A DNA stretch of 64,000 bases from Chitinophagales bacterium (GTDB lineage Bacteria; Bacteroidota; Bacteroidia; Chitinophagales; UBA10324): NCBI GenBank assembly GCA_038326325.1, contig JBBQJW010000013.1, forward strand, positions 15,460 to 79,459. Reading direction: 5' to 3'. Position numbers and translations under genes: made by a program. How positions within the stretch are numbered: the stretch's first letter is position 1; each line of letters starts with the position of its first letter. This document shows positions 1 to 64,000 of the stretch, piece by piece. Below the pieces are notes generated by a model. The model ran no database searches. It saw only the letters and a list, made by a program, of their open reading frames with translations, and had not been told where the DNA came from.

Positions 1-26
1 AATAGACCCAATTGGAAAAAATAGAA

Positions 27-58
27 GCCGCTCCGATAATTTTCGGAGCGGCTTTTTT
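27..58 (+). terminator. Rho-independent terminator hairpin
   Basis: Perfect 10-bp stem GCCGCTCCGA (27-36) / TCGGAGCGGC (43-52), 6-nt loop, T6 tail at 53-58. Confidence 0.7.
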
Positions 59-329
59 ATTTTATCAGATTTAATTTTTTTCACAATACTCATTATTAAG
101 TGCTGCTAGTTATTACTTCGCAATTCGGACTAAAAGACGGCTGAAGGAATTTCTTCTTCCAGCAGTTAGTGTTAAAATACTTAGTGTTTAGGAAATATAT
201 TTTCTATGGTTAGTTTTTTACCACTTTAACTGTTTGTATGTTTTGGTTTTGCTTAATGCGAACGAAGAAAGCACCTACAGGTAATCGGGATTAACAACTG
301 TAATTTGATTTAGGTTGTCTTCAGGAATT

Positions 330-578
330 TACTGAATTAATTTATCAATCATTTCATAAACCTGAACCTTAATATTCGCGGCGCAAAAGATGATAAACTA
401 ACTGTTACACTTACTGATGCTTCGAGCAAACAGGTTTTAAGTTCAACTGTTACACCTGACTCCGATAATTTTTATTTCATAATAAACACTAACCTAACGC
501 AAAACAGACAGCCGATATTACATGGCTGAAATAATAAAGAACGGAAAAGTTTATTCGAAAAGCGTGGTACTGCAATGA
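330..578 (+). pseudogene. Frameshifted 3-prime remnant of a T9SS C-terminal sorting domain gene
   Basis: The frame from 362 reads LNLNIRGAKDDKLTVTLTDASSKQVLSSTVTPDSDNFYFIINTNLTQ and then stops. A shifted frame continues YYMAEIIKNGKVYSKSVVLQ* (stop 576-578). Together these are the two halves of a typical T9SS CTD. No intact ORF lies upstream. Confidence 0.4.
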
Positions 579-672
579 GCAATGGAGAACTAAGAGTGAA
601 GAACGAAGTAAGATTGCTGCTTAATGCAGTGTAGAATTAAAAGTGAAGAGTGAAAAACTCTGCGTTCTTCAC

Positions 673-714
673 AAAAAAAATCCGCGCAACTGTAACAGTC
701 GTGCGGATTTTTTC
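673..714. terminator. Bidirectional terminator hairpin with a CTGTAACAG motif at its tip
   Basis: The layout is an A8 run, outer stem ATCCGCGC/GTGCGGAT (one G.T pair), inner stem ACTG-TAA-CAGT (689-699), then a T-run. It reads as hairpin plus U-tract on both strands and lies just downstream of the minus-strand gene ending at 745. Confidence 0.65.
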
Positions 715-744
715 ATACTAACGACAATTCTAATGTCAGAAAAT

Positions 745-3360
745 TTATTTAGTCAGAATCATTGATTTGGTGTCGATGAGTTTACCATCAATAAACAAAC
801 TATAGGTGTAAGTGCCTGCTGTCAGTTCGCCACTCTGAAGTGTAACAGTTCCGAAACCTGCCATGATATTTTCAAAGCGCTTCATCAGTTTGCCGTTTGT
901 ATCACTCACCTGAATGTATGCGGCTTTAGCAGTTGATGGAATGTAAAAACGGATGTAGCTCGATTGCATAAACGGGTTCGGCACATTCTGCTGTAACGAA
1001 GCAGTTTCCGGATTCAGATTTCCAGATGTAGTTGACCCCTGATAAGCCGAGCAGCATTGCGATAAAGCAGATTGAAAATCCTGTAACGACTTTTTTATGT
1101 CGGCCACTTCATTTTTCAACTGTGTGTTTTCATTTTGTAAATCAGTAATCTGTGCCTGTGCATCTGTGGAAATTCCGGTTTCAATTTCTTTTTGCTGATC
1201 CTGAACCGCTGAAATCAAAACAGGAATCAACTCCTGATAATTTACAGCAAGGTAGTTGAACGAAGATTTATCGTCGTTATAAAATTTATTATCAGAAACC
1301 AATTCAGGAAAAACTTTCTGCAGGTCCTGTGCAATCAATCCGTAATGATTTCCTGATGGTAAAAACATATCGCCGAATTCACCCACTTTAAACTCATATG
1401 AAGAAGGCTTCAACTCCATAATTTTATCAAGCGAATTTGAAATAGGAGTAACATTTTTTTTCAACTTCGCATCGGAAGAGTAAGAGTTGGTTCCGGTTCC
1501 GGTGAAGTTTCCGCTGCAGAAAATTGCATAAGTAGCACCATTGGAATTAGCTAACAAAGCTGCGTTACCATTGGTAGCACCTTTTGCATAAATTCCAAGA
1601 TAATTTCCTTCAAAGTAACCACCAAGTCCAAAGTTGGCATTTGTACCTAATGCTGTTCCTATTACCCCAACACCATCGTTATTTCCAGTACCGTCATAAT
1701 TTCCTTGCAGTGAAAAGGCAGAGCCAGCACCATTGGATCCGCCGGCATAAATTGTGGTAAATAAATTACCATATTGGGCACTTGATTGACCCCTCATTCC
1801 CATACCGCTATTAGAATATCCATAAGATCCAATACCTGTATTTGAAATTCCATAAACACCCATACTTGAATTTGAATTTCCATAAACCCCTGCATTGTTG
1901 CCTGAATTTCCATAAGTTCCAAAACCGGAATTTGAAGTTCCATAAACCCCAGCGCCTGTGAATGAACTTCCGTAAGTACCATTACCGGAATTTGAATATC
2001 CGTAAACCCCTGTGCTTGTGACTGAACTTCCATATGCTCCGTATCCGGAATTTGAATTGCCGACAACTCCATTACCTGTGGTTGCTGTTCCTACTACGCC
2101 ATTGAATCCTCCTAAAGAACCAAAACCGCCATTAGTTGAATATCCCTCAATAGCATAGTTATTACTATTTACATGCGCTTCAATAGCTGCAATTGATGTT
2201 TGGTCAGGGCCAGTGTAGTTTTTATTAATGTAAACACCTCCGCCATTTCCTGTTTTTGTGCAATTGAGTATATAACCTTCCCCCGGATCAGTTACTAAAA
2301 TCCCAGAGTATCCATTTGTAACTACATTGAGTTTATAACTCACATCTGTGGGTGCTCCACCAATACCAACTACCGAGGCGTTATTATTATAAATATCATT
2401 TCCTGTAGCAGTCCATTTGCTGTTAATGGTGTTTCCTGAAAAAGAAATCCCCGTTCCGGCGGTATAGGTTGTTCCTGTTGGAAGTATTACATTATTACCT
2501 CCGCTAATTGATAATGTGCTTCCTACAAGACTGAGTGTTTGAGCATCTGTATTCAATGATGTATTTGAGATTACAGTGCCAACAATTCCAATTCCTGTTC
2601 CGGCAGTATAAGTTGTTCCTGTTGGAAGTGTAACATTATTACCACCACTGATTGATAAGGTGCTTCCGGCAAGACTGAGTGTTTGTGCATCCGTATTCAA
2701 TGAAGTATTTGATATTACAGTGCCAACAATTCCAATTCCTGTTCCAGCGGTATAAGCTGAACCATTATCCGCACTCCATGCAAGCACACCTGCACCGTTG
2801 GTTTTTAATACCTGATTAACTGTTCCGTCAGTAGCAGGTAAAGTATATGCACCGACTTTTAAGTTGCCTTTAAAAATCCCATTCCCGGAGTTCGCGCCAA
2901 TTGAAAATACTGAGAGAGCAGAACTTGTTCTGAATTCATAAAGCAAACCGGAGGAATTAAAAAACAAACCATAGTTCGGGTTTCCGGCATACTGAAATGC
3001 ATATTTATTTCCGGCTACTTTATAAGCAGCTGTTCCGGCAAAAGATAAATTTCCTCCCGAATCAATTTTAGCCAGGTTAAATGAAGCACCAAACTGCCAC
3101 AGTCCGTTCGATTTTACACGACCTTTTTCGGTGTTGTTAGTTTTAAAAACAAAATCTTTATTGTCGGTAGTGCCTATAAAATTTGTTCCGGCGGTAGTTC
3201 CTGAGTTCCCAACTAGGTTCCACGATTGGGCAAAAGAATTGGTTGTGAAAGATGAAGTAATAGTTACAATACATACAACAATGAAGTGTAACAGTCTGAT
3301 ATTGATTTTACTCATTGAATTAATTTTTTTCAACAGGTATTCGTGAATCTTTGATTTCAT
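745..3360 (-). CDS. Secreted tail-fibre-like protein with a peptidase S74 intramolecular-chaperone domain and a T9SS C-terminal sorting domain
   Basis: 871-aa ORF with a signal peptide (alternative start ATG 3315, MSKINIRLLHF...SFAQ). It contains Gly/Ser/Tyr-rich decapeptide repeats. An S74-like block is present (SSDAKLKKNV...HYGLIAQDLQKVFPELV...AVNYQELIPVLISAVQDQQKEIE), followed by a coiled coil. The C-terminal CTD reads NPFMQSSYIRFYIP...GTYTYSLFIDGKLIDTKSMILTK. Confidence 0.75.
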   Translation of the reverse strand: MKSKIHEYLLKKINSMSKINIRLLHFIVVCIVTITSSFTTNSFAQSWNLVGNSGTTAGTNFIGTTDNKDFVFKTNNTEKGRVKSNGLWQFGASFNLAKIDSGGNLSFAGTAAYKVAGNKYAFQYAGNPNYGLFFNSSGLLYEFRTSSALSVFSIGANSGNGIFKGNLKVGAYTLPATDGTVNQVLKTNGAGVLAWSADNGSAYTAGTGIGIVGTVISNTSLNTDAQTLSLAGSTLSISGGNNVTLPTGTTYTAGTGIGIVGTVISNTSLNTDAQTLSLVGSTLSISGGNNVILPTGTTYTAGTGISFSGNTINSKWTATGNDIYNNNASVVGIGGAPTDVSYKLNVVTNGYSGILVTDPGEGYILNCTKTGNGGGVYINKNYTGPDQTSIAAIEAHVNSNNYAIEGYSTNGGFGSLGGFNGVVGTATTGNGVVGNSNSGYGAYGSSVTSTGVYGYSNSGNGTYGSSFTGAGVYGTSNSGFGTYGNSGNNAGVYGNSNSSMGVYGISNTGIGSYGYSNSGMGMRGQSSAQYGNLFTTIYAGGSNGAGSAFSLQGNYDGTGNNDGVGVIGTALGTNANFGLGGYFEGNYLGIYAKGATNGNAALLANSNGATYAIFCSGNFTGTGTNSYSSDAKLKKNVTPISNSLDKIMELKPSSYEFKVGEFGDMFLPSGNHYGLIAQDLQKVFPELVSDNKFYNDDKSSFNYLAVNYQELIPVLISAVQDQQKEIETGISTDAQAQITDLQNENTQLKNEVADIKKSLQDFQSALSQCCSAYQGSTTSGNLNPETASLQQNVPNPFMQSSYIRFYIPSTAKAAYIQVSDTNGKLMKRFENIMAGFGTVTLQSGELTAGTYTYSLFIDGKLIDTKSMILTK
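2462..2760 (-). repeat. 144-bp (48-codon) near-identical tandem duplication inside the CDS
   Basis: Unit starts (GTATAAG/GTATAGG) lie at 2462, 2606 and 2750, exactly 144 bp apart. The encoded peptide YTAGTGIGIVGTVISNTSLNTDAQTLSL(A/V)GSTLSISGGNNV(T/I)LPTGTT occurs twice, plus a partial third copy. Confidence 0.9.
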
Positions 3361-3538
3361 GGTTTAGGGTTGGTTTGTTGAATGTGAATCTATAAATAAT
3401 TTTCATAATTTGCTCCGGTGCAGTTAACCCCACTCACCCCTTATCCCGTCTCCAATGTTTATTCAGTATTTATTCATCGGAACCGATAAGCAATAACCGA
3501 TAACAGATGATTCATGTTTTGACCGGCGTTAAAAATTT

Positions 3539-3895
3539 CTATTCCCTTTGCTGCTTATTATCTCTATTACCCGCTTCAAACAACGAGTTAACTATCGACA
3601 GCACAATACTGAAAAGCAAAGCATACCAGAAACCATCCACCACAAAACCCGGAACAATTTTTCCGGCGAGCATAATCATAAATGCATTGAGCACTAACAG
3701 GAAAAAACCAAGTGTGAAAATGGTAATGGGTATGGTTAGAATAATTAAAACAGGTTTTACAAATGCATTGAGCACTGCAAGCACTGCCGCAACATAAATA
3801 GCGGTGAGCATGTTAGGCACTGTAACACCCGGAAGTAGGTAGGCAGAAACCAACACTGCTAAACCTGTAATTAAAATTTTAATAAGAAAGCGCAT
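3539..3895 (-). CDS. Phage-holin-family-IV / DUF360-like small membrane protein
   Basis: 118 aa with 3-4 TM helices. The pattern LITGLAVLVSAYLLPGV...AVLNAFVKPVL..LT.P is typical of the YvlD/DUF360 family. Confidence 0.6.
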   Translation of the reverse strand: MRFLIKILITGLAVLVSAYLLPGVTVPNMLTAIYVAAVLAVLNAFVKPVLIILTIPITIFTLGFFLLVLNAFMIMLAGKIVPGFVVDGFWYALLFSIVLSIVNSLFEAGNRDNKQQRE

Positions 3896-3977
3896 GTTGT
3901 TTTTTGTTGACCGAAAGATGCAAAGATTTTACAATTTATTCTGAAGGCAATTTCTTGTTTATAAAACACATTGCTAT

Positions 3978-4925: not shown

Positions 4926-5050
4926 CGTATGAATTTAATTTAATAAACGAATGAAGTGTAACACTATTGTGTGAAATATGACTTTTATAAAACAATTTGC
5001 TGCGTAGTTTTTATTTTAAAATATCTACTTTATAATTTCTATTTACTTCT

Positions 5051-7196: not shown

Positions 7197-7324
7197 AATA
7201 ATATCGCTCTGATTGTTTCATAGCAAAAACCATTTCTCCCAGTGAGGAAAATATTCCTCAACTGTGGCAAAGCATTCCTGTTTTTATAATTAGTTTTTAA
7301 TGAAAACAGTAATTACTTTAACTG

Positions 7325-7510
7325 TTACACTTTTACATTAAACAGCGAATCCCACACACCGAAAACTTTAAGCAGCCAAATCACTAAAATGATTACCACC
7401 ACTGCATTCAGTAGGTTTTTAATGGTTGATTGCATTGGAATGTATTTGTTTACTAACCACAGTAAAATTCCAACAACAATAATGGTTACAATCACAGTTA
7501 AGAGAGGCAT
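7325..7510 (-). CDS. Small two-TM membrane protein (unknown function)
   Basis: 61 aa with two hydrophobic helices (VTIIVVGILLWLV, AVVVIILVIWLLKVF). The stop codon lies inside a GTGTAACAG motif copy. Confidence 0.5.
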   Translation of the reverse strand: MPLLTVIVTIIVVGILLWLVNKYIPMQSTIKNLLNAVVVIILVIWLLKVFGVWDSLFNVKV

Positions 7511-19734: not shown

Positions 19735-21411
<1,677 letters not shown>

Positions 21412-46844: not shown

Positions 46845-46876
46845 CTGTTACATGCAATTTATTTTTACTGTAACAG
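46845..46876 (+). other. Inverted pair of the TGTWACA motif forming a hairpin after the kinase gene (possible terminator)
   Basis: CTGTTACA (46845-52) pairs with TGTAACAG (46869-76), with a 16-nt loop and a T-rich tract at 46888-46897. Confidence 0.4.
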
Positions 46877-47934: not shown

Positions 47935-48015
47935 TAGGTGCGACTTGTTGCTTGGCTCGCATGGCTTTACAATGGATGAAGCTATTATTATTGGTTAATT
48001 TTTTAACTGTAACAC
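47935..48015 (+). repeat. Direct repeat R2, copy a (about 81 bp)
   Basis: About 85% identical by eye to 52018-52098 (TAGGTG.GACTTGTTG...GGCTCG...CTTTACA..GGATGAAG.TATTATTATTG.TTAATTTTTTAACTGTWACAC). Confidence 0.8.
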
Positions 48016-49364: not shown

Positions 49365-49672
49365 GGTGTTTTGCTATTTGGAGAGAATAAAAATACTTAA
49401 ACTGAATAAAAAGATTCACTTTTAATTTATTATAAAACTGTTACACCTGTTGCCGGCAACTGAAGCAGCTTGTGAAACTTGTTGCTGTTTCCGCAAAGTC
49501 TCCCTTACGCTGTTGGGCACTTTGAGGTTACGCGATTTTAGCGGGAAGACTGTACCGGAACTGAATAGCGCATAACAGAAATATGTTTTGGTTTTGGAAA
49601 AAAAAATTCCTGTTAAGATGCATAAAATTTAATTTTACCCCAGGAAAGTAATTCACCAAACAGCATTAAAAA

Positions 49673-50488: not shown

Positions 50489-50572
50489 CACATTGCAATC
50501 AAGCTCAGTTAAGTGCCGCTATTTTAAATCTATTTATTTAACGCGACCCGATTGCAAATCGGGACGAACTGA
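50489..50572 (+). repeat. MITE-like repeat R1, copy A (about 84 bp)
   Basis: About 85% identical to 51247-51330. It has imperfect terminal inverted repeats around TTGCAATC / GATTGCAA and contains the hairpin CCCGATT-GCA-AATCGGG. Confidence 0.8.
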
Positions 50573-51246: not shown

Positions 51247-51330
51247 TCAAATTGCAATCGGGCTCACTTAAGTGCCGCGATTTTAAATCTATTTATTTAA
51301 CGCCACTCGATTGCAAATTGAACCGAACTG
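51247..51330 (+). repeat. MITE-like repeat R1, copy B
   Basis: See copy A. It is in the same orientation and lies between the 171-aa ORF and the four-helix-bundle gene. Confidence 0.8.
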
Positions 51331-51423
51331 GGCAACTGTTACACCTGCTGTTGTGTAATTATTCTATATCATTTTCAAAGGACTTCAAGCACTTGCGGGA
51401 CTTCTAACATCGTACTTAAGCAG

Positions 51424-52017: not shown

Positions 52018-52098
52018 TAGGTGGGACTTGTTGGACGGCTCGGACGACTTTACAGAGGATGAAGATATTATTATTGATTAATTTTTTAACTGTTACAC
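52018..52098 (+). repeat. Direct repeat R2, copy b
   Basis: See copy a. It spans the hsdR stop codon and the hsdR/four-helix-bundle spacer. Confidence 0.8.
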
Positions 52099-54417
52099 CG
52101 CAACTCTCTCATCATATAAATGTTTTTGAAACCCGATAAACAGTTCGCGGATTTTTGGAATGCCGCCCAACTTTTCAGCGGCATCACTTACCGCATGATA
52201 TTTTAATTCAAGTAAACTTGGTAATTTTTCCTGGTCGAGTTCTTCCACTCCTGATTCAATGTATTTCGATAAAACAAATTCCAGAAACTCTTTCTGATTA
52301 TTATCGAGCATCGTGAAAATATTTTTCTGCGCGTTGGCAACACGCTTCTCGCGGGTGATTGGATTTTTAGAGTAGGAAATAAATTCCAGCACATCAAACA
52401 AATCGCTCTGCTCCGCGTCAATAATTTTTTGTAGTGTAGCCAATTCATCTTTTCCAAAACCCGCTTCATCCAATTGCTCCAATAAAGTTTTTCGTGTTAA
52501 AGGGTTTGACCATATTCTGCGCAACTCCTCTTCGTTTTTAAAAAGGTCGGGAAGTTTACCGAACAGACTATCTAAAAACTCCTCCAATGTCATTGGGTTG
52601 CCATCGGCTCCCATAAACAAAGAAGAAACCGTGTGTTGAATATCGAACTCCCTACCATTGCGCAACTTCACTCTTATTTTTATACGAGGTTCCGGTGGTT
52701 CCAGAATTCCGCCACCTTCATCAGTATTGCTATCATCTGGCTTTTCACTTGGTGGCTGAGGGTTTGTTTCAATTGTGTCTTCAGGTTCGCCATCCCATTG
52801 CGGGTCTTTGAATTTTTCACTTGCGTTTACAAAATCATAAATGGTGAAAAAGTTTTTATCGTCGAACAACCTCGTGCCTCTCCCTATAATTTGCTTGAAC
52901 TCTATAATATCGTTTATCGGTCGCATGAGCACGATGTTTCGGATGTTGCGAGCATCTACTCCCGTACTTAATTTTCTTGAAGTGGTGAGTATGGTCGGCG
53001 TGCTTCTTTCATTATCCTGAAACTGACGCAAATACTCTTCGCCCATTTCGCCGTCGTTGGCTGTTACACGCACGCAATAATTCGGCTCCTTGCTTTTTTT
53101 GTACTGGTTAATTAAATCACGCACCGCCGCCGCGTGTTCCTGCGTGGCGCAAAACACCAATGTTTTTTCTTTCTGATTAATTAAATCCATAAAGATTTTT
53201 ACGCGCTTTGCCTCGCGTGCTTTTATCTCTATGATTTTATTAAAATCACTTTCAGTGTATGTTTTGGTTTCATCTATTTCTCCTTCAATCACATTGTCGT
53301 CCGGCTGATAAGTGTAGGTATCAAGCGTGGTGGTAAATTTTTTAACTTTAAACGGCGTGAGAAATCCATCGTTGATTCCTTCCTTGAGCGAGTAAATAAA
53401 AACGGGCTCGCCGAAATATTTATAGGTGTTAACATTCACCTTTTTTTTAGGAGTGGCGGTTAATCCGATTTGCACCGCCGGAGAAAAATATTTTAATATC
53501 TCGCGCCAGGTGCTTTCATCATTTGCGCCGCCGCGATGACATTCGTCAATGATGATGAAATCAAAATAGTCTTTCGGATACTCACCGAAGTAGGGTGTAT
53601 CATTCGGACCGTTCATGAATGTTTGAAAGATGGTGAAGAAGATACTGCCGTTTGTCGGCACACTTCCTTTCTTTTTTATTTCTTTCGGACTGATGCGCAC
53701 GAGTGCATCTTCAGGAAAAGCATTGAAGGCGTTGTATGCCTGATCGGCTAAAATATTACGGTCTGCTAAAAATAAAATGCGCGGACGGCGGCCACCGTCG
53801 TATTTCAGATTCCAGCGCGTGTGAAATAATTTCCACGCAATCTGAAAAGCAATAAAAGTTTTTCCGGTGCCTGTTGCGAGTGTGAGTAGCACCCGATTTT
53901 TTTTTGCTGCAATGGCATCCAATGTTTTTTCTACGGCAATATCCTGATAAAATCTACCGCCCATGCTGCCGCCTTTTGTTTCGTAAGGCACTGCATCAAA
54001 CTTATCCTGCCATTGATTGGTGACAGGAAAAACTTTGTGCCACAACTCTTCAGGCGAATGAAAATTTTCTATCAATTCTTCTTTGGCTGAATCCATATCA
54101 ATATGATATATCTCTCTGCCGTTTGCGGAGTAGGTATCGTCAATTTTTAATTTCTCTGCATAGTCTTTTGCCTGCGCCACTCCTTCACCTACTTGCTGCT
54201 CATCACTCTTTGCTTCCACCACGGCGAGTTTGCGACCTTTGTAAGCAAGCACATAATCGGCAATGGTTGCTTTGCCTCTTCCTCCGGTAGCTTTTATTTT
54301 TCCGTCAGTAATCTGAAACTCACGATGCACTTTCACTTCGGGGTTGGCTTTGCCATCCCATCCGTTTTCTTTCAGCTTCGGGTCTATCAGTTCCGCTCGT
54401 GTTTCTGCTTCGTTCAT
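52093..54417 (-). CDS. hsdR: Type I restriction endonuclease, R subunit
   Basis: MNEAETRAELIDPKL N-terminus, helicase motifs LATGTGKTF, IIDECHRGG and QIIGRGTRL, and an EcoEI-R-like C-terminal domain. Confidence 0.9.
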   Translation of the reverse strand: MNEAETRAELIDPKLKENGWDGKANPEVKVHREFQITDGKIKATGGRGKATIADYVLAYKGRKLAVVEAKSDEQQVGEGVAQAKDYAEKLKIDDTYSANGREIYHIDMDSAKEELIENFHSPEELWHKVFPVTNQWQDKFDAVPYETKGGSMGGRFYQDIAVEKTLDAIAAKKNRVLLTLATGTGKTFIAFQIAWKLFHTRWNLKYDGGRRPRILFLADRNILADQAYNAFNAFPEDALVRISPKEIKKKGSVPTNGSIFFTIFQTFMNGPNDTPYFGEYPKDYFDFIIIDECHRGGANDESTWREILKYFSPAVQIGLTATPKKKVNVNTYKYFGEPVFIYSLKEGINDGFLTPFKVKKFTTTLDTYTYQPDDNVIEGEIDETKTYTESDFNKIIEIKAREAKRVKIFMDLINQKEKTLVFCATQEHAAAVRDLINQYKKSKEPNYCVRVTANDGEMGEEYLRQFQDNERSTPTILTTSRKLSTGVDARNIRNIVLMRPINDIIEFKQIIGRGTRLFDDKNFFTIYDFVNASEKFKDPQWDGEPEDTIETNPQPPSEKPDDSNTDEGGGILEPPEPRIKIRVKLRNGREFDIQHTVSSLFMGADGNPMTLEEFLDSLFGKLPDLFKNEEELRRIWSNPLTRKTLLEQLDEAGFGKDELATLQKIIDAEQSDLFDVLEFISYSKNPITREKRVANAQKNIFTMLDNNQKEFLEFVLSKYIESGVEELDQEKLPSLLELKYHAVSDAAEKLGGIPKIRELFIGFQKHLYDERVAV

Positions 54418-54428
54418 GTTTTTCTTTT

Positions 54429-54616
54429 ATGCGATGGACGATACCCATCGTTAGCGTATATCGCCTCTTCGTGGCTGATAGTATTATCCATCCTTAGATG
54501 CGATGGGCTACACCCATCATTAGCATATGTCGCCACTTCGTGGCTGAGAGTGTTATCTGTCATTAGATGCGATGGGCTACACCCATCGTTAGCATATGTC
54601 GCCACTTCGTGGCTTG
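54429..54616. repeat. 69-bp tandem repeat (about 2.7 units) of composite REP hairpins
   Basis: Unit starts ATGCGATGG lie at 54429, 54498 and 54567. Each unit carries hairpins GATGGGCTACACCCATC and GCCACTTCGTGGC. The array begins 12 nt upstream of the hsdR ATG. Confidence 0.9.
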
Positions 54617-54753
54617 CCCTGAAAGGGCATAATATTCCAACACAGGGTGCAGCCCTGTGGTAACAGGGTGCAGCCCTGTGGTAAGCACTAACATAGGGTG
54701 TAGCCCTATGAAGTGGCATCGCCACGAAACCCAAGCCCTGCAAGGGCGGCATA

Positions 54754-55206
54754 TTAATCCCACACATACTTCTCATCATATTCCACTTCGTATTTTTTTA
54801 AGAAGGCGCGGTACTCGTCCTGAAATGTTTTTTTGCTGTGATGTTCTTTCTGATTGGCGATGTAGTTTATTACCGTGTCAATCTCACTTGGGTTTACTGA
54901 GAATGCGCCATATCCATCCTGCCAGTAAAAGTTTTTATAATCATCACCTTTTGTCTTTATCCATTTTGATGAATGCGATTTTACTTCTTCTAATAATTTC
55001 ATCAATGCAATTTTTTTCGAGAGCATGCACAGGATGTGAATGTGGTCGGTGTATCCTCCCACTTTTATTGGCGGACACTCTAAGTTTTTACAGATGCCTC
55101 CTAAATAACTATGCAACTCGGCTTCTACCGGCGGATGTATGAGCGGCTCGCGGTGCTTGGTGCTGAATACGATGTGCATGTAGTTTTTTACGAGTGACTG
55201 TCCCAT
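54754..55206 (-). CDS. IS200/IS605-like Y1 HUH transposase (RAYT type)
   Basis: 150 aa with NYMHIVFSTKHREPLI, the HUH motif GGYTDHIHILC and the catalytic Tyr region FYWQDGYGAFSV. Confidence 0.8.
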   Translation of the reverse strand: MGQSLVKNYMHIVFSTKHREPLIHPPVEAELHSYLGGICKNLECPPIKVGGYTDHIHILCMLSKKIALMKLLEEVKSHSSKWIKTKGDDYKNFYWQDGYGAFSVNPSEIDTVINYIANQKEHHSKKTFQDEYRAFLKKYEVEYDEKYVWD

Positions 55207-55239
55207 GTTTTTCGATGGGCTGCACCCATCTTTATTAGA

Positions 55240-56499
55240 TTACGCCCCTTCAGGGCTTGGTTGTTTGTTTTTTTTATCTCGAATGGCGTTGCCATTCGCT
55301 AATGATTTTGCCCCTTCGGGGTTGCGCAACTCTCCGCTAAACGCCTTCTGTAACACACTCTTCTTCAACTCTTCCAAATCGGCTATCTTCTTTTCGTAGA
55401 TGCTTTCTAATTTTTTTGTTTCGGTTGAGAGGGCATCAAGTTTTTTAACGATGGCTTGTTGCTCTTTTAAGGATTTTGGAAAAGGAATGATTATATTCTT
55501 CACTTCACTATCTGTTACAGCAGGATAGCTTGCTCCTTTTTGAAGTTTTTCCATTTGCTTGTTAAATCCATAAGTTAAGAGAAAATAAAAAATAAAATTA
55601 CTATTAAGAAAGTCCTTTGCTCTTAAAACAAAGTAACCGGTACTACAAATTTGCTCGTTATATTCTTTTGTTATTAAAGCAACCCGGCTGTGCGTTGGTC
55701 TAACAGTTGCAAAAATTACATCGTTTGTTCTTATAAGTTTTCTTGCTCGGCTTGGTGCATCTTTACCTTTTAGTACAGTTGCATTTTCAATTTCTTTTGT
55801 TTCTTTATTAACGCTCGATACATCAAGATAAATAAATTCTTTATTTGGTTTTTTGGTTGGGTCAGCCGTTTCTGTTTTTTGAAGAACCTCTCCCAATTTT
55901 TTCTCCTCCCAACCCTCACCTTTATTTTCAAACACACTTTGCAAGTAACTCTCAAAAAGTTCTTTAGCGTTTTTAAGATTTTGTTCGGCATTGGCTTTTG
56001 CCTTGGCTATGGCGGCAAATGCTTCATCTAATATTGATACTATCCGTTGTTGTTCGAGGAGAGGGGGAAGTGGTACAGGATATTTATCTAATAATTCCTT
56101 TCTTACCCCATCCTGACCAGCAGCTCGTTTTGAAGAATGTTCTACAAACTCTCTTAGTTTGTCCGTTTTAAGAAATAAGAAGAAATAATCTCTGTTACAA
56201 ATTTTCTCATTAATAACAGCTTTCATTAAAGCCACATTATACGCACCTTCAATTCCTTTAAATATTCCAAAAATTGGTGGCCCATAACGACCTATCATTA
56301 TGTCTTCTTTATTACAAAATCTTTTTGCTTTTGCTTTTGGAATGTATGTAACAAACTTATCTGTTCGATAATCTCTGACTTGAACTAGTCTTATGTATCC
56401 ACTTTTTGGTTCATAGATAAATTCATCTTTTGATGGTTGACTTCCACCAACCAATTCACATACATCAATAAAATTCTTTATTTCCCACCCTTGTTTCAT
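55240..56499 (-). CDS. hsdS: Type I R-M specificity subunit
   Basis: Two TRDs are separated by conserved spacers (PLPPLLEQQRIVSILDEAF; FPKSLKEQQAIVKKLDALS). It overlaps hsdM by 4 nt. The last 28 codons are encoded by REP-like hairpin DNA. Confidence 0.85.
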   Translation of the reverse strand: MKQGWEIKNFIDVCELVGGSQPSKDEFIYEPKSGYIRLVQVRDYRTDKFVTYIPKAKAKRFCNKEDIMIGRYGPPIFGIFKGIEGAYNVALMKAVINEKICNRDYFFLFLKTDKLREFVEHSSKRAAGQDGVRKELLDKYPVPLPPLLEQQRIVSILDEAFAAIAKAKANAEQNLKNAKELFESYLQSVFENKGEGWEEKKLGEVLQKTETADPTKKPNKEFIYLDVSSVNKETKEIENATVLKGKDAPSRARKLIRTNDVIFATVRPTHSRVALITKEYNEQICSTGYFVLRAKDFLNSNFIFYFLLTYGFNKQMEKLQKGASYPAVTDSEVKNIIIPFPKSLKEQQAIVKKLDALSTETKKLESIYEKKIADLEELKKSVLQKAFSGELRNPEGAKSLANGNAIRDKKNKQPSPEGA

Positions 56500-57968
56500 A
56501 TCAATTCTAAAATAGAATTTAAAATATCTGTGCTCTCTTCATCTAATATTTTCATTTCTTCTAAAATTTCTTCGGGTTGGCGCAGTGCGGCTTCTGCTTT
56601 TTTGTTTGGGTTTTTGGCGCCCAAGTCAAAAGTGGTTTGGTCAATGTCTTTAATATTTATTGTCCATGAGTTTTCGCTTTCTCCCTTCGACTGGCTCAGG
56701 GTGACAGCTTTTTGTAGTGTTACAAAGTCAGCCAAATCATTTTCATTCAGCGCATTGGTTTTGCCGAGGTTGCGGTCTAAGTTCAGTTGGTAGTACCACA
56801 CTTTTTTTGTGGCAGTACCTTTTTCAAAAAACAACACCACCGTTTTTACTCCCGCGCCGGTAAAGGTTCCCCCCGGCAAATCAAGCACGGTGTGCAGGTT
56901 GCAGGTTTCTAATAACAGTTTGCGCAAACTCACAGAGGCATTATCGGTGTTACTCAAAAAAGTATTTTTAATCACCACGCCTGCCTTGCCTCCTGCTTTC
57001 AATATTTTTATAAAGTGCTGCAAAAACAGCGAAGCGGTTTCACCTGTTTTTATCGTAAAGTTCTGCTGTACTTCTGCTCTTTCCTTTCCGCCAAACGGTG
57101 GGTTGGCGAGTACCACATCGTAGCGGTCTTTGTCCTGTATGTCGGCGAGGTTTTCACTCAGCGTATTCGTATGAATAATATTGGGCGCTTCCACGCCATG
57201 CAATATCATGTTCATGATACCTATAATGTAGGCGAGTGATTTTTTCTCTTTGCCGTAAAAAGTTTTGGTCTGAAGTGTTACAGCATCTTTAGTCGAGAGA
57301 TTTTTGTTCTGCTTCAGGTATTCAAACGATTCGGTTAAGAAACCGCCGGAGCCGCACGCGCCATCATAAATTTTATTTCCGATTTCAGGTGCCACTACTT
57401 TCACAATTGTTTTTATCAGCGGGCGCGGCCTGTAATACTCGCCGCCGTTGCGCCCTGCATTGCCCATGTTCTTTATCTTGTCTTCATACAGATGGCTCAT
57501 CTCGTGCTTCTCTGCACTCGAATTAAATCGAAGTTCATCCACTAAGTTTATTATCTCGCGCAAATTGTACCCGCTCTGAATTTTATTTTTCAGCTCGCTA
57601 AAAATTTCTCCAATCTTATATTCAATCGTGTTAGCATGGTCGGCATCAACTTTAAATTTTTTTAGGTAAGGAAACAGTTTGCCATCTACAAAATCTTTCA
57701 GGTCATCACCCGTCAACGCTTTGTGATGGTCGAGCTTGCCTTCTTTTCCTTTCGGAGCTGCCCACACATTCCATTGAAATTCTTTTTTAATAAGCGGCTC
57801 ATAAGTTTTGCCGGTGAGTTCGGCTTTCGCTTCGCGTTCTTTTTCTAAGTCGGATAAATATTTCAGAAAGATTATCCAGGAGGTTTGCTCTACATAATCC
57901 AGTTCGTTGCTGCACCCCGCTTCCTTCCAAAGTATATCATCAATATTTTTAAAAGATTGTTCAAACAT
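56496..57968 (-). CDS. hsdM: Type I R-M N6-adenine DNA methyltransferase subunit
   Basis: AdoMet motif IYDGACGSGGFL, catalytic motif VLANPPFGGKE, and an HsdM N-terminal domain (ILWKEAGCSNELDYVEQTSWIIFLKYL). Confidence 0.9.
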   Translation of the reverse strand: MFEQSFKNIDDILWKEAGCSNELDYVEQTSWIIFLKYLSDLEKEREAKAELTGKTYEPLIKKEFQWNVWAAPKGKEGKLDHHKALTGDDLKDFVDGKLFPYLKKFKVDADHANTIEYKIGEIFSELKNKIQSGYNLREIINLVDELRFNSSAEKHEMSHLYEDKIKNMGNAGRNGGEYYRPRPLIKTIVKVVAPEIGNKIYDGACGSGGFLTESFEYLKQNKNLSTKDAVTLQTKTFYGKEKKSLAYIIGIMNMILHGVEAPNIIHTNTLSENLADIQDKDRYDVVLANPPFGGKERAEVQQNFTIKTGETASLFLQHFIKILKAGGKAGVVIKNTFLSNTDNASVSLRKLLLETCNLHTVLDLPGGTFTGAGVKTVVLFFEKGTATKKVWYYQLNLDRNLGKTNALNENDLADFVTLQKAVTLSQSKGESENSWTINIKDIDQTTFDLGAKNPNKKAEAALRQPEEILEEMKILDEESTDILNSILELI

Positions 57969-57976
57969 ATTTTATT

Positions 57977-58645: not shown

Positions 58646-58659
58646 ACCTTTTTACACTC

Positions 58660-58684: not shown

Positions 58685-58822
58685 AAAATAGCTAACACCT
58701 TAAATATAAGATGGAGTGTAACAGTCGGCATCGGACTTTAAACAATAACTTTTACATTAAAATGACACCGTGTTGAGCAATTAATTCCCCATCCTGTCGT
58801 TACTTAGAAAAAATTCAAGTGT

Positions 58823-59056
58823 ATGAAATACCCCGATGGATTAACGAATCGCGAAATGGAAGTGCTTGGTTATGTAGTTCGCGGGTTCCCAGTAAAAATG
58901 ATTGCGGCAGCCATGGGCATCAGCCCCAATACCGTAAATACTTATCTGCGCGAAATGCGCTTTAAATCTGATACACACAATATGCGCGAACTGGCTCGCT
59001 ATGCACGCAAAATAGGTTTTAATGACGATGGCGTTTATCTGGCTATCGCAATATAA
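58823..59056 (+). CDS. LuxR/GerE-type HTH transcriptional regulator (stand-alone)
   Basis: 77 aa, LTNREMEVLGYVVRGFPVKMIAAAMGISPNTVNTYLREMRFK. Confidence 0.75.
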   Translation: MKYPDGLTNREMEVLGYVVRGFPVKMIAAAMGISPNTVNTYLREMRFKSDTHNMRELARYARKIGFNDDGVYLAIAI

Positions 59057-59193
59057 ACGAACCGCACTGATACACCTTGCGGTCACCTGTTTTAATTAGT
59101 TGATTGCTGCTAACATTATTTTGGATTACACGGGTCATTGCGCTGTTGGAATTTTACAAAAGAAAATTTCACCCCGCCATGAGAAATACTTCA

Positions 59194-59481
59194 CCTGTTA
59201 CACTTTACGCTACACTATTTACTTGTAAAGAAAAGTATTGCAAAAGTAACAGGAGCACTGTAACACTACACCGCATTCCATTCACATACCATTCTATTCA
59301 GGTATGGCTATATTCTGAACTATTGGTGTTGTTTTTTATTCCTGTAGCTCATTGCATGGAACAAGTACTGCTGATGATTAAACTGTTTGCACATGACAGG
59401 GAACAAGTAGCCCTAAATAAATTACCTGTAACACTTTACATTGAACATTTATCTGAACAACAGTCGCCTGTAACATTTTAC
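59194..59481 (+). promoter_or_regulatory. Phased array of CCTGTWACAYTTTAC sites (iteron/operator-like)
   Basis: Sites start at 59194, 59257, 59425 and 59467, with a degenerate site at 59341. All offsets are multiples of 21 bp (63, 147, 231, 273). GGAACAAGTA occurs at 59358 and 59400 (42 bp apart). Confidence 0.5.
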
Positions 59482-59619
59482 CGGAACAAACACACACGGC
59501 AATGGTTTGTGCGGCCGCGATCGCCAACCTGTTGAGAATAGTAAAGCGCATTGTTGCTGAATGGTAACGATGCCGATGATGGAATTTCAATTTTTTTAAA
59601 CTTTTAAAATCAATTTTTT

Positions 59620-60255: not shown

Positions 60256-60269
60256 CGGTGGGAGGAGTG

Positions 60270-60304
60270 AGCAGTTAGCAGCTAGCAGTTAGCAGCTAGC
60301 AGTT
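60270..60304. repeat. Heptanucleotide microsatellite (AGCAGYT)x5
   Basis: AGCAGTT AGCAGCT AGCAGTT AGCAGCT AGCAGTT, that is a 14-bp unit x2.5, lying 15 nt after the preceding stop codon. Confidence 0.9.
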
Positions 60305-60547
60305 AATCATATTCAGAAATCAGTTTGAATCTGTTACATCAGTGTCATCAGTGTTCTATTGTATTTCTGCGGAAAGCAAAAGCAACCTAGCAGCTTGTTA
60401 CTGACGATTTATGACTACGAACTTTTACCTAATGACTCAAAAAAACAAACTGGAAAGACAGGGCCAATGTTATTCAGGCGACGCTTTAATATAGATTCGG
60501 TAATTAATTGATAAAATTCTGAAATGATAAACGGGAGTTATATAGGA

Positions 60548-62962
60548 TTATCTTAACAGTGTTACATTTCCTTTTACTTCTCCGGTAGTAATTACACCAT
60601 CACTCTCTCCCGAATATTTCGAATAAAAAATATATACACCTATACCACAAGGCGCATCATCTTTCTTTCCATCCCAGTGATCATGAATATCATTAGTTAT
60701 AAAAATCAATTGCCCCCAGCGGTCGTAAATTTCAAGATGATAACTTGAGATATTAAATCCAATGCCAAAGAAGCCATCATTTATTCCATCTTCATTCGGC
60801 GAAAACCCATTTGGGAAATAAAGCAGCACAGGGCATTTCTCTTGCACTAAAAAAGAATCAGTTGCAGAACACCCGACAAAATTTGTAACAGTAAGCGAAT
60901 AAACTCCCGGCATGTTAACCATGATGGAAGAAAATACAGAGCTATCCTGCCACAGATAATGAGTAAAAGTTCCGGGGGCAATAATTTGAATAGGAGTACC
61001 GGGGCACATAAAAGTATCGGGCATCACAAGGTCTGGCGGATTAAAATAACCGAGAATGTTTCCTCCTGCCTGTGCCGTGCAGCCGAAAGCATCTGTAACA
61101 GTCACCGAATACAAGCCGGGTACTGTTACAGTTATAGTTTGAGTGGTACTGCCATCATTCCAAACAAAGGCAGTAGCACCTGTTCCTGCATCAAAGGTAT
61201 GCGAACCGCTTATGCAAATAGAAGTGTCATTTCCTAAATCAGGTTGTGGGGGAATATTCCAATAAATCATCATTGTGTCGGTTCCTGTGCAACCAAGATT
61301 ATTTGCAACTGTTACATTTACTAATCCTGAATCGTTGGTCGGAAAAGTTTGTGCGGTAGAACCATCGTTCCATAAATATCCAGCGTATCCGTTTCCGGCA
61401 TCTAAAAGCACAATTTCGTTTTGACAAACTGTTGTATCGTTTCCAAGAGAAAAAATAATAGGAGGAAGCAGTGAGAGTGTAACAGTGTCAATATCGGTGC
61501 AGCCACTACCGGTGGTCACTGTTACAGCAAAAACCCCAGTTTGCAAAGCATTGATGTTTTCAGTTGTGCTTCCGTCGTTCCATACATAGGAAGCATAACC
61601 CGCACCGGCATCGAGTACTAAAGTTTGTAACGGACACAGCGAAGTATCAGGTCCCAAATCAACAGGTACTAACAATTGCGCAAGCGGGAGATTAAATAAA
61701 ACCCCTCCGGCATTTCCTGCTGCTGCGCCAAAAGAAGTGTTGTAACAGCTACTTGCCGGATTCTGCACTAAGCCAGGTTGTCCCGCTGCTGCAGTGTAAT
61801 TTACAGATGCAGGAAGTGTGGCACCACTTATCCAAAGCAATCCACCACCGCCACCGCCACCTGGACCATGACACTGCCCGGTGAAAATATTATTATAGGT
61901 GTTTCCACCATCGCCACCATTGGTTGTGATATTAGTAGTACTTAAAAAATTCGGAACAGCCAAAATAATTGAACCTCCTGAGCCACCTCCTCCAGCCGAT
62001 TCATCATTGGCAACCAAAGTCTGGTTGGGTGCATCGGAGCGAATGAAAAAATTATTTCCATCAATTGCTGATGCCGTGATTAGCACAATTCCGCCTCCAT
62101 CTGTTCCGGGTGTTACACTTTGTGAGTTATCGCTGAAACCGCCGCCACCGCCGCCACCCATAAATATTTTTAGTCCGGTATTCGAAACAACAGAACCACC
62201 AATTCCCTGTATTCCTGTAGTGCCGCAACCGCTGTATTCATTACCACCGATTCCACCTGAACCAAAATTTCCGCCACCTCCGCCACCACAATTTCCGGGG
62301 TTGCCACCACCACCACCATTCGCAATTTTTCCCATACCGCCTTCCTGACCTCCAATATATTGCGCGATACTTTCTCCTTTAACTCCTCCTGAACCCAGCC
62401 CTAAAAAGAAATTTGTGTTGCTACATCCAAAACCACTCAGGCATGTTGCACCTCCTGTAAATCCATTTCCGCTTACATCTATATCTGCATTAAGTGTAAC
62501 AGTTCCACTCGCATCAAAAACAAGAACTCCCCCTGTTGTGCCGTTCCAATCCTGTGCAAGCAGAGTGGCTGTTACAGTTGGATTTGTAAATTGAGGAACA
62601 GTTATCAACTGGACTAAATCAGCGATGGTGTATTGGCGGCAAAGCGGAGATTGAATGGTAATCGTATTTCCGTTTATGGCTGTAACAATTGCGTATTCGT
62701 AATTGCCCGCGTTGTTGTAAGAAAGAATATCGCCATACGAAAGTGTGTTGGTTTGGTTAATCGCTGCACCCTTCATTTGAATGATGAGCACTTTTCCTGT
62801 AACTGAAAACCCAACGGATGATGTAACGGAAATATTAACTCCGGTAATGGCTGTTACACTTGTATAGGAATTTATTATTCCGCTGATGTTTTGCGAATAA
62901 GAAATAAAGGGTGACACAATAAGGATACTAAGCAGTAGTGTCTTTAATTTTTTTTTGTTCAT
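60548..62962 (-). CDS. Large Gly-rich adhesin-like protein with gliding-motility (type B T9SS) C-terminal domain
   Basis: Signal peptide, poly-Gly tracts and four repeats of about 70 aa (LG.DT..C......LDAG.G...Y.WNDGSTT....... G...VTV....GC...D). The CTD reads FPNGFSPNEDGINDGF...IYDRWGQLIF...WDGK...GVYIFY. Confidence 0.75.
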   Translation of the reverse strand: MNKKKLKTLLLSILIVSPFISYSQNISGIINSYTSVTAITGVNISVTSSVGFSVTGKVLIIQMKGAAINQTNTLSYGDILSYNNAGNYEYAIVTAINGNTITIQSPLCRQYTIADLVQLITVPQFTNPTVTATLLAQDWNGTTGGVLVFDASGTVTLNADIDVSGNGFTGGATCLSGFGCSNTNFFLGLGSGGVKGESIAQYIGGQEGGMGKIANGGGGGNPGNCGGGGGGNFGSGGIGGNEYSGCGTTGIQGIGGSVVSNTGLKIFMGGGGGGGFSDNSQSVTPGTDGGGIVLITASAIDGNNFFIRSDAPNQTLVANDESAGGGGSGGSIILAVPNFLSTTNITTNGGDGGNTYNNIFTGQCHGPGGGGGGGLLWISGATLPASVNYTAAAGQPGLVQNPASSCYNTSFGAAAGNAGGVLFNLPLAQLLVPVDLGPDTSLCPLQTLVLDAGAGYASYVWNDGSTTENINALQTGVFAVTVTTGSGCTDIDTVTLSLLPPIIFSLGNDTTVCQNEIVLLDAGNGYAGYLWNDGSTAQTFPTNDSGLVNVTVANNLGCTGTDTMMIYWNIPPQPDLGNDTSICISGSHTFDAGTGATAFVWNDGSTTQTITVTVPGLYSVTVTDAFGCTAQAGGNILGYFNPPDLVMPDTFMCPGTPIQIIAPGTFTHYLWQDSSVFSSIMVNMPGVYSLTVTNFVGCSATDSFLVQEKCPVLLYFPNGFSPNEDGINDGFFGIGFNISSYHLEIYDRWGQLIFITNDIHDHWDGKKDDAPCGIGVYIFYSKYSGESDGVITTGEVKGNVTLLR

Positions 62963-63165
62963 AACGGGAAGTTAATCGCAATGCTCAAAAATAACTTTTC
63001 ACCTGTGATTGCAATGATTATTAAAACGGGAATTATCAATAATCTTACTGTTTCGTTCCCTTCCATATTTCCGCTATTCACCGACTGCAATCTGTTTCAT
63101 ACCTAATTGTCCTTGCCGGAAGTTGCGCATACAAATAGGTTTGTCGCATCAAATAAAAAAATCAA

Positions 63166-63939
63166 ATGGAAACAATCAATCATCCCGACTTTGACTCGAA
63201 CAAAAACCGAATTCCCAATCGTCATAATCCTGCCGGGCGTGTGCTTGCAGGAATAGTCATTGTTGCGGCCGGTGGAGTATTGCTGGCGAAGCAGGCAGGA
63301 ATTTATTTTCCTGATTGGGTTTTTACCTGGCAGATGTTTTTAATTGTGCTTGGAATTTTTCTCGGATTCAGAAATTTGTTTCGGGGTAGTGGATGGCTCA
63401 TTCCAATCATTATCGGTAGCGTGATGATGGTTGATGAATTTTATCCTGATGTACAAATGAAACAATATCTATGGCCCATAGTTTTAATTTGTGTGGGACT
63501 GTTTATGGTTTTTCGGCCGCGCAATTATCGTCGCGAAAATTGGAAAAAAAGATGGAGACGCGATTACAGTGGATATAATTCAAAAGCTACTGCGTCTGAA
63601 GAATTTTTGGATGTCACCTGCGTGTTCAGTGGAATGAAAAGAAATGTAATGACTAAAGATTTTAAAGGGGGTGAAGTGAATTGTGTTTTCGGTGGAACAG
63701 AAATTAACCTGAGCAATGCGGATATAAAAGGACCGGTGAGATTAGAAATCAATCAGGTGTTTGGTGGTACGAGTTTAATTATTCCATCGAATTGGGAATT
63801 GAGATCAGAGATAAATGCAATTCTTGGAGGAGTTGAAGACAAAAGATCTGTATCACCTTCCATAAAAACTGATCCTGAAAAAATTTTGATTCTCGAAGGC
63901 AATTGTGTTTTCGGCGGCATTGATATTAAAAGTTATTAA
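63166..63939 (+). CDS. LiaF-like (cell-wall-active antibiotic response) membrane protein
   Basis: 4 TM helices followed by repeated VFGG blocks (CVFSGMKRNV, VNCVFGGTEINL, INQVFGGTSLIIP, ILGGVEDKR, NCVFGGIDI). Confidence 0.6.
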   Translation: METINHPDFDSNKNRIPNRHNPAGRVLAGIVIVAAGGVLLAKQAGIYFPDWVFTWQMFLIVLGIFLGFRNLFRGSGWLIPIIIGSVMMVDEFYPDVQMKQYLWPIVLICVGLFMVFRPRNYRRENWKKRWRRDYSGYNSKATASEEFLDVTCVFSGMKRNVMTKDFKGGEVNCVFGGTEINLSNADIKGPVRLEINQVFGGTSLIIPSNWELRSEINAILGGVEDKRSVSPSIKTDPEKILILEGNCVFGGIDIKSY

Positions 63940-64000
63940 TCGCATTAATAAAACCCTGTTAGTATGAAATGGTTTTTAGCTAAAATAATTTTCAGAATAA

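Follow-up and report, generated by a model that had tools for sequence, protein, structure and literature searches.

The 64,000 bp window considered here, the whole stretch of DNA that was analysed, comes from contig JBBQJW010000013.1 (positions 15,460 to 79,459) of a Chitinophagales bacterium (GCA_038326325.1), and both its genes and its spacers are densely occupied by the seven-base word TGTWACA. The window has 37.6% G+C and its open reading frames (ORFs) were called mechanically. Its genes include pyrG (19735–21390, minus strand), which is the most conserved gene compared and holds 1 copy of the word (0.6 per kb) at a conserved Tyr-Val-Thr, and comEC, with its Competence and DUF4131 domains (13394–15496, minus strand), which holds three. 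A Type I restriction-modification (R-M) operon occupies 52093–57968 on the minus strand (hsdM at 56496–57968, hsdS at 55240–56499, hsdR at 52093–54417), and a minus-strand gene at 60548–62962 encodes a beta-rich protein with a CHU_C domain, secreted by the type IX secretion system (T9SS). T9SS sorting domains are carried by this lineage, and the best matches to its PyrG are proteins from metagenome-assembled genomes (MAGs) at 88–90% identity, with named genomes reaching at most 77%.

The word occurs 121 times in the window, as 56 copies of TGTAACA and 65 of TGTTACA on the plus strand, a density of ~1.89 per kb or 1,890 per Mb (about one every 500 bases). Dinucleotide-preserving shuffles contain 11.0 ± 3.3 copies with a maximum of 19, and Markov models of order 0–3 predict 11–18. 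The null that we judged appropriate, a shuffle of synonymous codons within each gene, gives 20.0 ± 4.1 copies (maximum 31) against 104 genic copies observed, and shuffling the order of codons gives 11.3 ± 3.4 genic copies. Markov models of order 4 and 5 predict 40 and 103 copies respectively, expectations that are circular rather than a refutation because the 5- and 6-mers involved (e.g. TGTAAC, GTAACA) come mostly from the word itself. The excess is ~10-fold for the 7-mer core and 56–75-fold for 9-mers: the 8-mer CTGTTACA is found 82 times against 2.5 expected (33-fold), the 9-mer CTGTTACAC/GTGTAACAG 33 times against 0.44 (75-fold), and the extended forms ACTGTTACA and AAGTGTAACAGT 55 and 8 times against 0.8 and 0.02. 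The strand split of CTGTTACA is 47 (+) to 35 (−) with no switch along the window in 8-kb bins, and the copies are spaced slightly more evenly than random, though not significantly so (coefficient of variation 0.89, against 0.99 ± 0.09). An earlier, sequence-only reading of this stretch had counted by hand ~120 copies split ~55:65 between orientations, with 10–15 expected from composition, and ~30 copies of the 9-mer against fewer than 1; the exact counts bear out each of these figures, and all of its quoted coordinates are correct to within 1 base. It had also proposed a check against Markov models of order 4 or above or a codon-aware background, and here the excess persists under the codon-aware null, the Markov half of the check being the circular one.

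Long ORFs contain 104 of the 121 copies and spacers the other 17. Genic copies are strongly framed, with 85 of them (82%) in the frame nnT-GTW-ACA, encoding X-Val-Thr, where the synonymous shuffle expects 15.4; a further 12 lie in nTG-TTA-CAn (Leu-Leu-His/Gln; 1.95 expected) and 7 in TGT-WAC-A (2.5 expected), an enrichment of 3–6-fold in each of the three frames. Val-Thr ranks second among the over-represented dipeptides of the window (134 against 82 expected), and 97 of the 134 are encoded by GTW-ACA where codon usage predicts ~35. Avoidance of GTSAC was considered as a cause of this and rejected: GTS-ACN does account for just 13 of the 134 Val-Thr dipeptides, but the preferences for ACA, for the preceding T and for the flanking S stay unexplained. 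Lying wholly inside spacers are 15 copies where 1.3 are expected (~11-fold), and the spacer density (15–17 copies in 7.2 kb) is at least that of the genes (1.83 per kb), as had been claimed. Since the spacer copies lie within short stop-free stretches, hidden genes do not account for them, and since genic copies are spread over 43 of 53 long ORFs in 52 distinct four-residue contexts, neither does an artefact of low-complexity proteins. The TGTWACA excess operates at the DNA level. The sequence-only reading had come to a similar view, that codon or dipeptide bias is insufficient, from the presence of copies in all three frames and in almost every gene. Enrichment in each frame is real while an even spread is not, 10 of the 53 long ORFs have no copy at all, and the three-frames argument was overstated and misleading; the conclusion on codon effects survives only because the codon-aware null was run.

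Aligned in the TGTAACA orientation (n = 121), the copies give the consensus AA-S-TGTWACA-S-TT. Position −1 is C in 46 copies and G in 48, position +7 is G in 82 and C in 24, positions +8 and +9 are T in 73 and 60, and A is slightly preferred at −2 and −3, with flank information falling to about zero past ±3 bases. Half-sites are unequally represented (CTGTT 82, GTGTA 48, CTGTA 46, GTGTT 24), and the 9-mer counts are near the prediction calculated from independent flank preferences. The word is a quasi-palindrome about an intrinsically asymmetric W centre, with flanks that are independent and only quasi-symmetric; the non-random flanks were thus rightly noticed before, and of the dyad-symmetric consensus then proposed the sequence stands while its full symmetry does not. 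Specificity for the 7-mer is sharp. With the word masked when the background was built, the perfect word occurs at ~13 times expectation and most of its twenty neighbours with one mismatch at 0.6–1.3 times, the exceptions being TGTAACG (4-fold) and TGTATCA (2-fold). The central S variant TGTSACA is depleted (1 observed, ~5 expected), and the transition neighbours TATAACA and TGTAATA stand at 0.58 and 0.76 of expectation.

The manner in which copies arose can be read from orthologues. Five genes of the window (pyrG, yidC, comEC and those for an enoyl-CoA hydratase and a DUF4412 protein) are syntenic with L081 (GCA_014190575.1), a relative not enriched in the word, at 79–90% amino-acid identity. 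These genes contain 11 of the window's sites; not one of the 11 is a word in L081, and the same three amino acids are found there at only two of them; at the other nine the residues differ, TVT in the window corresponding for example to TNT, TAT, SVI, SIP, PSL or NSE. The orthologues of another relative, L088, follow the same pattern, and all three comEC copies are missing from both L081 and L088, where the amino acids differ too. The alignments are ungapped at the word sites, and up to six of the seven positions differ. With no words and few residues shared, it follows that the word was written in place, mostly nonsynonymously, at variable positions; judged from these alignments, the copies were created by point substitutions in situ and mostly at the expense of the encoded amino acid, at variable positions of the proteins.

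This rewriting has left a footprint in the proteome. Val-Thr stands at 1.59 times expectation in the window and likewise at 1.59 in two further enriched genomes, L087 and L091, taken together, with 0.72 and 0.62 of the Val-Thr dipeptides encoded by GTW-ACA. In five background relatives the corresponding values are 1.21 and 0.29, and in 80 other Bacteroidota loci 1.20 and 0.14; the raised Val-Thr frequency is specific to the enriched genomes. True uptake sequences show a frame bias, an approximate doubling of the encoded peptides and a location at poorly conserved residues (Findlay and Redfield, PMC2817400). This coding signature, known from the uptake signal sequences (USS) and DNA uptake sequences (DUS), is matched here by the share of genic copies in the Val-Thr frame (85/104), by the dipeptide ratio (1.59 against 1.2) and by the differing residues at 9 of 11 sites.

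Among relatives the TGTWACA trait is lineage-specific and patchy, as a check that the sequence-only reading had suggested makes plain: L087 and L091 are enriched, and five closer relatives and ~158 other Bacteroidota loci in total are without the excess. L087 (GCA_964424455.1) and L091 (from the SRR35206414 assembly) are truly enriched, with 1.39 and 1.16 copies per kb across all their genes, and at 82–83% PyrG identity are more distant from the window than the background relatives L081, L089, L090 (GCA_947483535.1) and L085/L086 (86–90% PyrG identity), which hold 0.18–0.31 copies per kb. L083 is slightly raised (0.46 per kb). L088 was rejected as an enriched genome, as 12 of its 16 copies fall, without S flanks, in a single giant gene of repetitive sequence. 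Around pyrG, 80 GTDB Bacteroidota loci have no excess (median observed/expected 0.5), and the relatives retrieved by a PyrG genome scan, all at 75% identity or less, included none that was enriched. A YidC metagenome scan returned two close relatives of 5 kb each, with 5 and 3 copies and no ACGT, and 78 distant metagenome loci in which no enrichment was seen. In L087 and L091 the Val-Thr frame holds 23 of 28 and 12 of 15 genic copies, against synonymous-shuffle nulls of 6.4 ± 2.2 and 3.1 ± 1.5, and their flank preference is shifted, CTGTA exceeding CTGTT. A neighbour-joining tree of PyrG, a single gene and hence only a guide, places the window as sister to a background clade with L087/L091 branching below L085; on this topology the trait was either gained twice, or present in the ancestor and lost at least twice.

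L087 and L091 share 78% nucleotide identity, and a comparison between them over 13–17 sites bears on whether the word is kept. Ten of 17 L087 words are conserved in L091 and 10 of 15 in the other direction, whereas all aligned 7-mers are conserved at 32%; with a frame-matched control, 8 of 13 words are kept against 25.4% (binomial P = 0.006). One conserved site flips its centre from TGTTACA to TGTAACA and remains a word, which fits a recognition site degenerate at W. By this comparison, small as the sample is, the TGTWACA sites are conserved beyond expectation, and we read them as actively maintained at the DNA level.

In the window, copies start at 403, 448, 691, 841, 2629, 3287, 3821, 4569, 4865, 4957, 5144, 5829, 6170, 6362, 7323, 8336, 8878, 9170, 10869, 11218, 11710, 12227, 13011, 13251, 14328, 15293, 15380, 15688, 17433, 18094, 18139, 19420, 19504, 21205, 21693, 22071, 23429, 24720, 24746, 25040, 26529, 26709, 27102, 27637, 27982, 28264, 28586, 28752, 30022, 30178, 31191, 32212, 32713, 33876, 34410, 34914, 35011, 35755, 37012, 38108, 38217, 38872, 38898, 39454, 39864, 40266, 40550, 41082, 41684, 42740, 43028, 43076, 43532, 43583, 44887, 44923, 45776, 46148, 46699, 46846, 46869, 47128, 48008, 48264, 48462, 48471, 48615, 49439, 49768, 50278, 51337, 52091, 53062, 55349, 55513, 56193, 56347, 56718, 57276, 58592, 58717, 59196, 59259, 59427, 59469, 59769, 59866, 60332, 60560, 60884, 61094, 61124, 61310, 61478, 61520, 61741, 62111, 62495, 62570, 62681 and 62852. 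The intergenic copies AACTGTTACACTT and AACTGTTACACCT (403–454, plus strand) are directly oriented and lie downstream of the minus-strand gene at 745–3360, in a region where the stop-free stretch in the Val-Thr frame is at most 62 codons, and a further intergenic AACTGTTACACTT is found at 7323–7329 (plus strand). The intergenic copies at 49439–49445 and 51337–51343 (both plus strand) read AACTGTTACACCTG, an identical 14-mer that recurs at 448. From its sequence context, the copy at 691–697 forms the apex of a terminator-like hairpin, TCCGCGCAAC-TGTAACA-GTCGTGCGGA (676–712), followed by a run of T, and it is the only clear terminator-embedded copy in the window. An inverted pair, TGTTACA and TGTAACA 23 nt apart, lies between convergent genes at 46846–46875; beyond this pair (46846/46869) and the hairpin copy (691), no link to terminators in general was found. 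Four copies cluster within 280 bp at 59196–59475, inside a doubtful 143-aa ORF with a TTG start (59104–59535) that has no Pfam or PADLOC match, and the cluster is probably spacer. The most copy-rich gene is that of the T9SS-secreted protein at 60548–62962, with 13 copies (5.4 per kb) in peptide contexts that all differ; per kb, it is exceeded only by the doubtful ORF. hsdR, of 2.3 kb, contains 1 copy.

Several neighbouring features were observed alongside these. The product of the gene at 745–3360 (minus strand) is 871 aa long and has a Peptidase_S74 domain (endosialidase chaperone, tail-fibre-like); the gene contains internal tandem repeats of 30 nt and 144 nt and adjoins a holin-family gene at 3539–3895 (minus strand); together the two may be a phage-derived remnant. 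Between hsdR and hsdS, at 54424–54630, are three tandem 69-nt direct repeats with 67–81% identity to the reference copy, over which short overlapping ORFs gave no Pfam or PADLOC match. Two pairs of direct repeats of 81–83 nt, 85–87% identical (47935–48015 with 52018–52098, and 50489–50571 with 51248–51330), flank small unannotated genes adjoining the Type I R-M system, and the region could represent a small cassette or island of paralogous genes. Each repeat of the first pair, at 47935–48015 and 52018–52098, terminates in a TGTWACA copy.

Other words in these genomes are also far from expectation. ACGT is wholly absent from the window (0 against ~158 expected), from L081–L086, L088 and L089 (24–46 expected in each) and from L092/L093, and it stands at 0.2 times expectation in L087, L090 and L091. 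Because it is missing from relatives with and without TGTWACA, the two are not linked: the whole clade avoids ACGT, whether or not TGTWACA is in excess, which suggests that it has long been exposed to a nuclease specific for ACGT and has had no methylation to protect it. Palindromes depleted in the window include GTATAC (0 observed, 9.8 expected), ATCGAT (1, 17.8), AGATCT (1, 9.1), TGGCCA (1, 8.7), CTAG (17, 95) and GATC (49, 192), with CTAG reduced to 0–1 in L087/L091. CCGG is enriched 2-fold in the window (172 against 88) and ~4-fold in L087/L091, possibly an effect of the very short patch (VSP) type of repair.

We favour, tentatively and at somewhat less than even confidence, the reading of TGTWACA as a self-DNA tag, possibly methylated, that a dimeric protein binds and that a bias in uptake or recombination has amplified. 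A protein that binds DNA sequence-specifically, and that may be coupled to a methyltransferase, would recognise the word; a dimer acting on duplex DNA, as Type II methyltransferases and many helix-turn-helix (HTH) dimers do, is suggested by the W-centred quasi-palindrome. Uptake, protection or recombination would favour alleles bearing the word, and molecular drive could then spread any mutation completing it, as with USS/DUS and as is now proposed for the highly iterated palindrome HIP1 of cyanobacteria. Any process in which completing the whole word from a neighbour one base away is rewarded, and which can outweigh amino-acid preference where constraint is weak, looks like a drive rather than like selection at each site, the classical argument for USS/DUS. 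The binding protein, the methylation and the link to uptake or recombination are the parts of this mechanism that we infer. HIP1, itself a methylated palindrome, promotes natural transformation in a way that depends on methylation (bioRxiv 10.1101/2024.09.10.611283) and varies together with DNA-uptake genes (bioRxiv 10.64898/2026.06.24.733823), and uptake-sequence and HIP readings are therefore not mutually exclusive. That TGTWACA is a Bacteroidota counterpart of USS/DUS/HIP1 in the fuller sense, a probably methylated tag whose dimeric reader skews uptake or recombination and whose specificity determinant is gained or lost between lineages that are close by PyrG identity, is possible but more doubtful.

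Several points weigh against the self-DNA tag. The source genome is represented by 64 kb and the second enriched lineage by ~37 kb. When most long ORFs of the window were scanned with Pfam and PADLOC, comEC was the only competence gene recovered, and no Type II methyltransferase, Vsr, DprA, ComEA, ComF, pilin or DNA receptor was found. comEC itself is present in close relatives that lack the word and hence lends no support to uptake, although the sequence-only reading had counted it as weak support; of the genes it listed for a search, ComEA, ComF, DprA and pilin gave no match in these scans. Terminator hairpins hold only 1–2 copies. Relatives at 86–90% PyrG identity are at background, whereas USS/DUS are family-wide, and USS/DUS are asymmetric whereas TGTWACA is quasi-palindromic.

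The main rival keeps the recognition site and dispenses with uptake: TGTWACA would be a HIP-like target of a Type II-like, perhaps orphan, methyltransferase with a role on the chromosome, such as strand marking for mismatch repair or nucleoid organisation. We regard this as rather unlikely. In its favour, a palindrome of odd length centred on W is typical of Type II sites, the word usage of the clade is dominated by forces of the R-M type (ACGT, CTAG and GATC depleted, CCGG raised 2–4-fold), and patchiness fits both mobile methyltransferases and the cyanobacterial 'alternate HIPs' (PMC4390886). As a lead only, uncultured marine genomes have been reported to contain methylated GTWAC, a motif that REBASE does not match (PMC8919816), and site conservation, seen here between L087 and L091, was the argument for selection on HIP1 (PMC5861425). 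The only DNA methyltransferase found in the window, however, is the Type I HsdM, whose bipartite specificity does not fit TGTWACA, and selection on each of thousands of sites should be too weak to change amino acids. A nucleoid-associated or chromosome-organising protein, abundant and perhaps a winged-helix dimer, whose dense binding sites are kept by selection is an improbable alternative. It would suit the dyad-like site, the slightly even spacing (not significant) and the cluster of four copies within 280 bp at 59196–59475, and TGTWACAW is the known consensus of a winged-helix protein, OmpR (PMC3586657); known sites of this sort are degenerate, however, with no 30–75-fold excess of exact 8–9-mers and no rewriting of coding sequence, and near relatives manage without the word.

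Explanations that need no tag or binding site fare less well. Biased repair of the VSP kind, acting with a cytosine methyltransferase and turning near-cognate sites into the word, may operate in the clade given the CCGG enrichment, and the two transition neighbours are mildly low, but such repair fixes one position and yields an excess below 2-fold where here seven positions are specified and the excess is 10–75-fold. The neighbours that deamination would produce are also only weakly depleted (TGTAATA 0.76, TATAACA 0.58) next to a target at ~13-fold, and orthologous sequences differ at up to six of seven positions, all of which makes a purely mutational origin decidedly improbable. A polar signal for recombination or segregation, such as Chi or the FtsK-orienting polar sequences (KOPS), would be strongly co-oriented with replication. 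TGTWACA has a slight strand bias (47:35 for CTGTTACA, 56:65 overall) that does not switch within 64 kb, and a density far above that of known Chi or KOPS; these too are over-represented short oligomers, as the introduction of PMC4390886 describes them, and yet a polar role is very unlikely. Selection for Val-Thr or for the codon pair GTW-ACA might seem to follow from the 82% of genic copies in a single frame; it is effectively refuted by the 11-fold enrichment in spacers, where copies lie in short stop-free stretches, by the 3–6-fold enrichment in the remaining two frames, by the specification of the preceding T and the flanking S, and by the synonymous shuffle (20 against 104), and retains hardly any probability. 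The probability that the copies belong to one dispersed repeat or miniature inverted-repeat transposable element (MITE) family is negligible. A few short 'families' (D7, D11, D12) are indeed seeded by the word, but information vanishes beyond ~±3 bases, no long direct or inverted repeat family includes the copies, the peptide contexts number 52 and the orthologous alignments are ungapped. This candidate was rejected on these grounds, and the dispersed family that the sequence-only reading had named as fatal to its finding is not there.

Hyper-abundant short words are known from only a few groups, the Pasteurellaceae, Neisseriaceae and cyanobacteria, and Bacteroidota with demonstrated natural transformation (e.g. 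Riemerella) are not known to use an uptake sequence. The origin of such words is debated between molecular drive and selection, and the function of HIP1 has been unresolved for 30 years. We file TGTWACA with this known class. The USS/DUS- and HIP1-like statistical behaviour that had been remarked upon, namely hyper-abundance in both orientations and in genes and spacers alike, beyond codon usage and not from a dispersed repeat, is upheld; the likeness is one of statistical behaviour, and membership in either group cannot be claimed. Like HIP1 (GCGATCGC; 300–2,700 copies per Mb, 55–228-fold excess; PMC4390886) and the 'alternate HIPs', TGTWACA is a short palindromic word found in genes as well as spacers, at ~10^3 copies per Mb (PMC4390886, PMC5861425). 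Further likenesses are a centre that is most constrained, flank extensions that preserve the palindrome, sites conserved between genomes beyond expectation (PMC5861425) and close relatives that can lack the word; HIP1's function, long unknown, is now linked to transformation. Against a range of ~15–300-fold and ~300–2,700 per Mb for the HIP class, TGTWACA reaches 1,890 per Mb, with its 8- and 9-mers at 33–75-fold and its core at ~10-fold. It differs from HIP1 in being in another phylum, AT-rich and of odd length, with a degenerate W centre and quasi-symmetric flanks, and the excess of the 7-mer (~10-fold) is below HIP1's 55–228-fold, while that of the 9-mers is 56–75-fold. With USS/DUS (PMC2817400, PMC3630211) it shares about equal orientations, a wide spread over the sequence, a reading-frame preference, a raised encoded peptide, poorly conserved residues and flank 'dialects' between lineages, but USS/DUS are tied to demonstrated competence, with a known receptor, ComP, for DUS. 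Its patchy distribution is closer to that of the 'alternate HIPs' (PMC4390886) than to the family-wide DUS/USS. Word biases caused by R-M resemble it as palindromes with frequencies shifted in a lineage-specific and patchy manner, in a clade with extreme palindrome avoidance; they differ in that R-M depletes words and VSP repair enriches them less than 2-fold, where TGTWACA is raised 10–75-fold and rewrites proteins. The searchable literature gave no TGTWACA or other hyper-abundant word in Bacteroidota, in line with the sequence-only reading, in which neither uptake sequences nor HIP1 were known from the phylum, and searches for the word itself returned only a CRISPR repeat, the OmpR consensus TGTWACAW and methylated GTWAC, with no prior description.

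The same statistical and proteome signatures are thus now seen in uncultured, probably freshwater Bacteroidota, with a word strong enough to alter protein sequences. The contrast between its presence and absence at 86–90% PyrG identity would make the putative driver protein searchable by comparative genomics alone, and L087/L091, with their shifted flank preference, provide a replicate for that search. For binning, the word also offers a strong marker of lineage. If it is a self-DNA tag, it would represent sequence-biased genetic exchange in a phylum where none is known, and if it marks DNA for uptake, methylation or recombination it would supply a design rule for genetic tools in such organisms.

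Viral contigs were scanned for triple clusters of the word, and 120 loci were returned. The dense ones (L260, L236, L176 and others) proved to be low-complexity giant ORFs, not cases of a word spread over a genome, and were set aside as uninformative on phages. In L260, L236 and L176, which are IMG/VR contigs, the giant ORFs specify linkers of the form (TPTNTVTP)n or G-V-T-G repeats resembling collagen, and the exact 11-mers ACTGTWACACC or CCTGTWACACC recur 20–52 times with little synonymous variation. One L260 ORF exceeds 4,200 codons and is 48% Thr, and this contig is nearly without ACGT (1 against 85 expected). In a Cyclobacteriaceae MAG (L030, DASRSO010000023.1; 50% G+C), the 8-mer ACAGTTAC/GTAACTGT occurs 11 times in 21.6 kb; a further lineage of Bacteroidota may thus have a hyper-abundant word of its own, distinct from TGTWACA.

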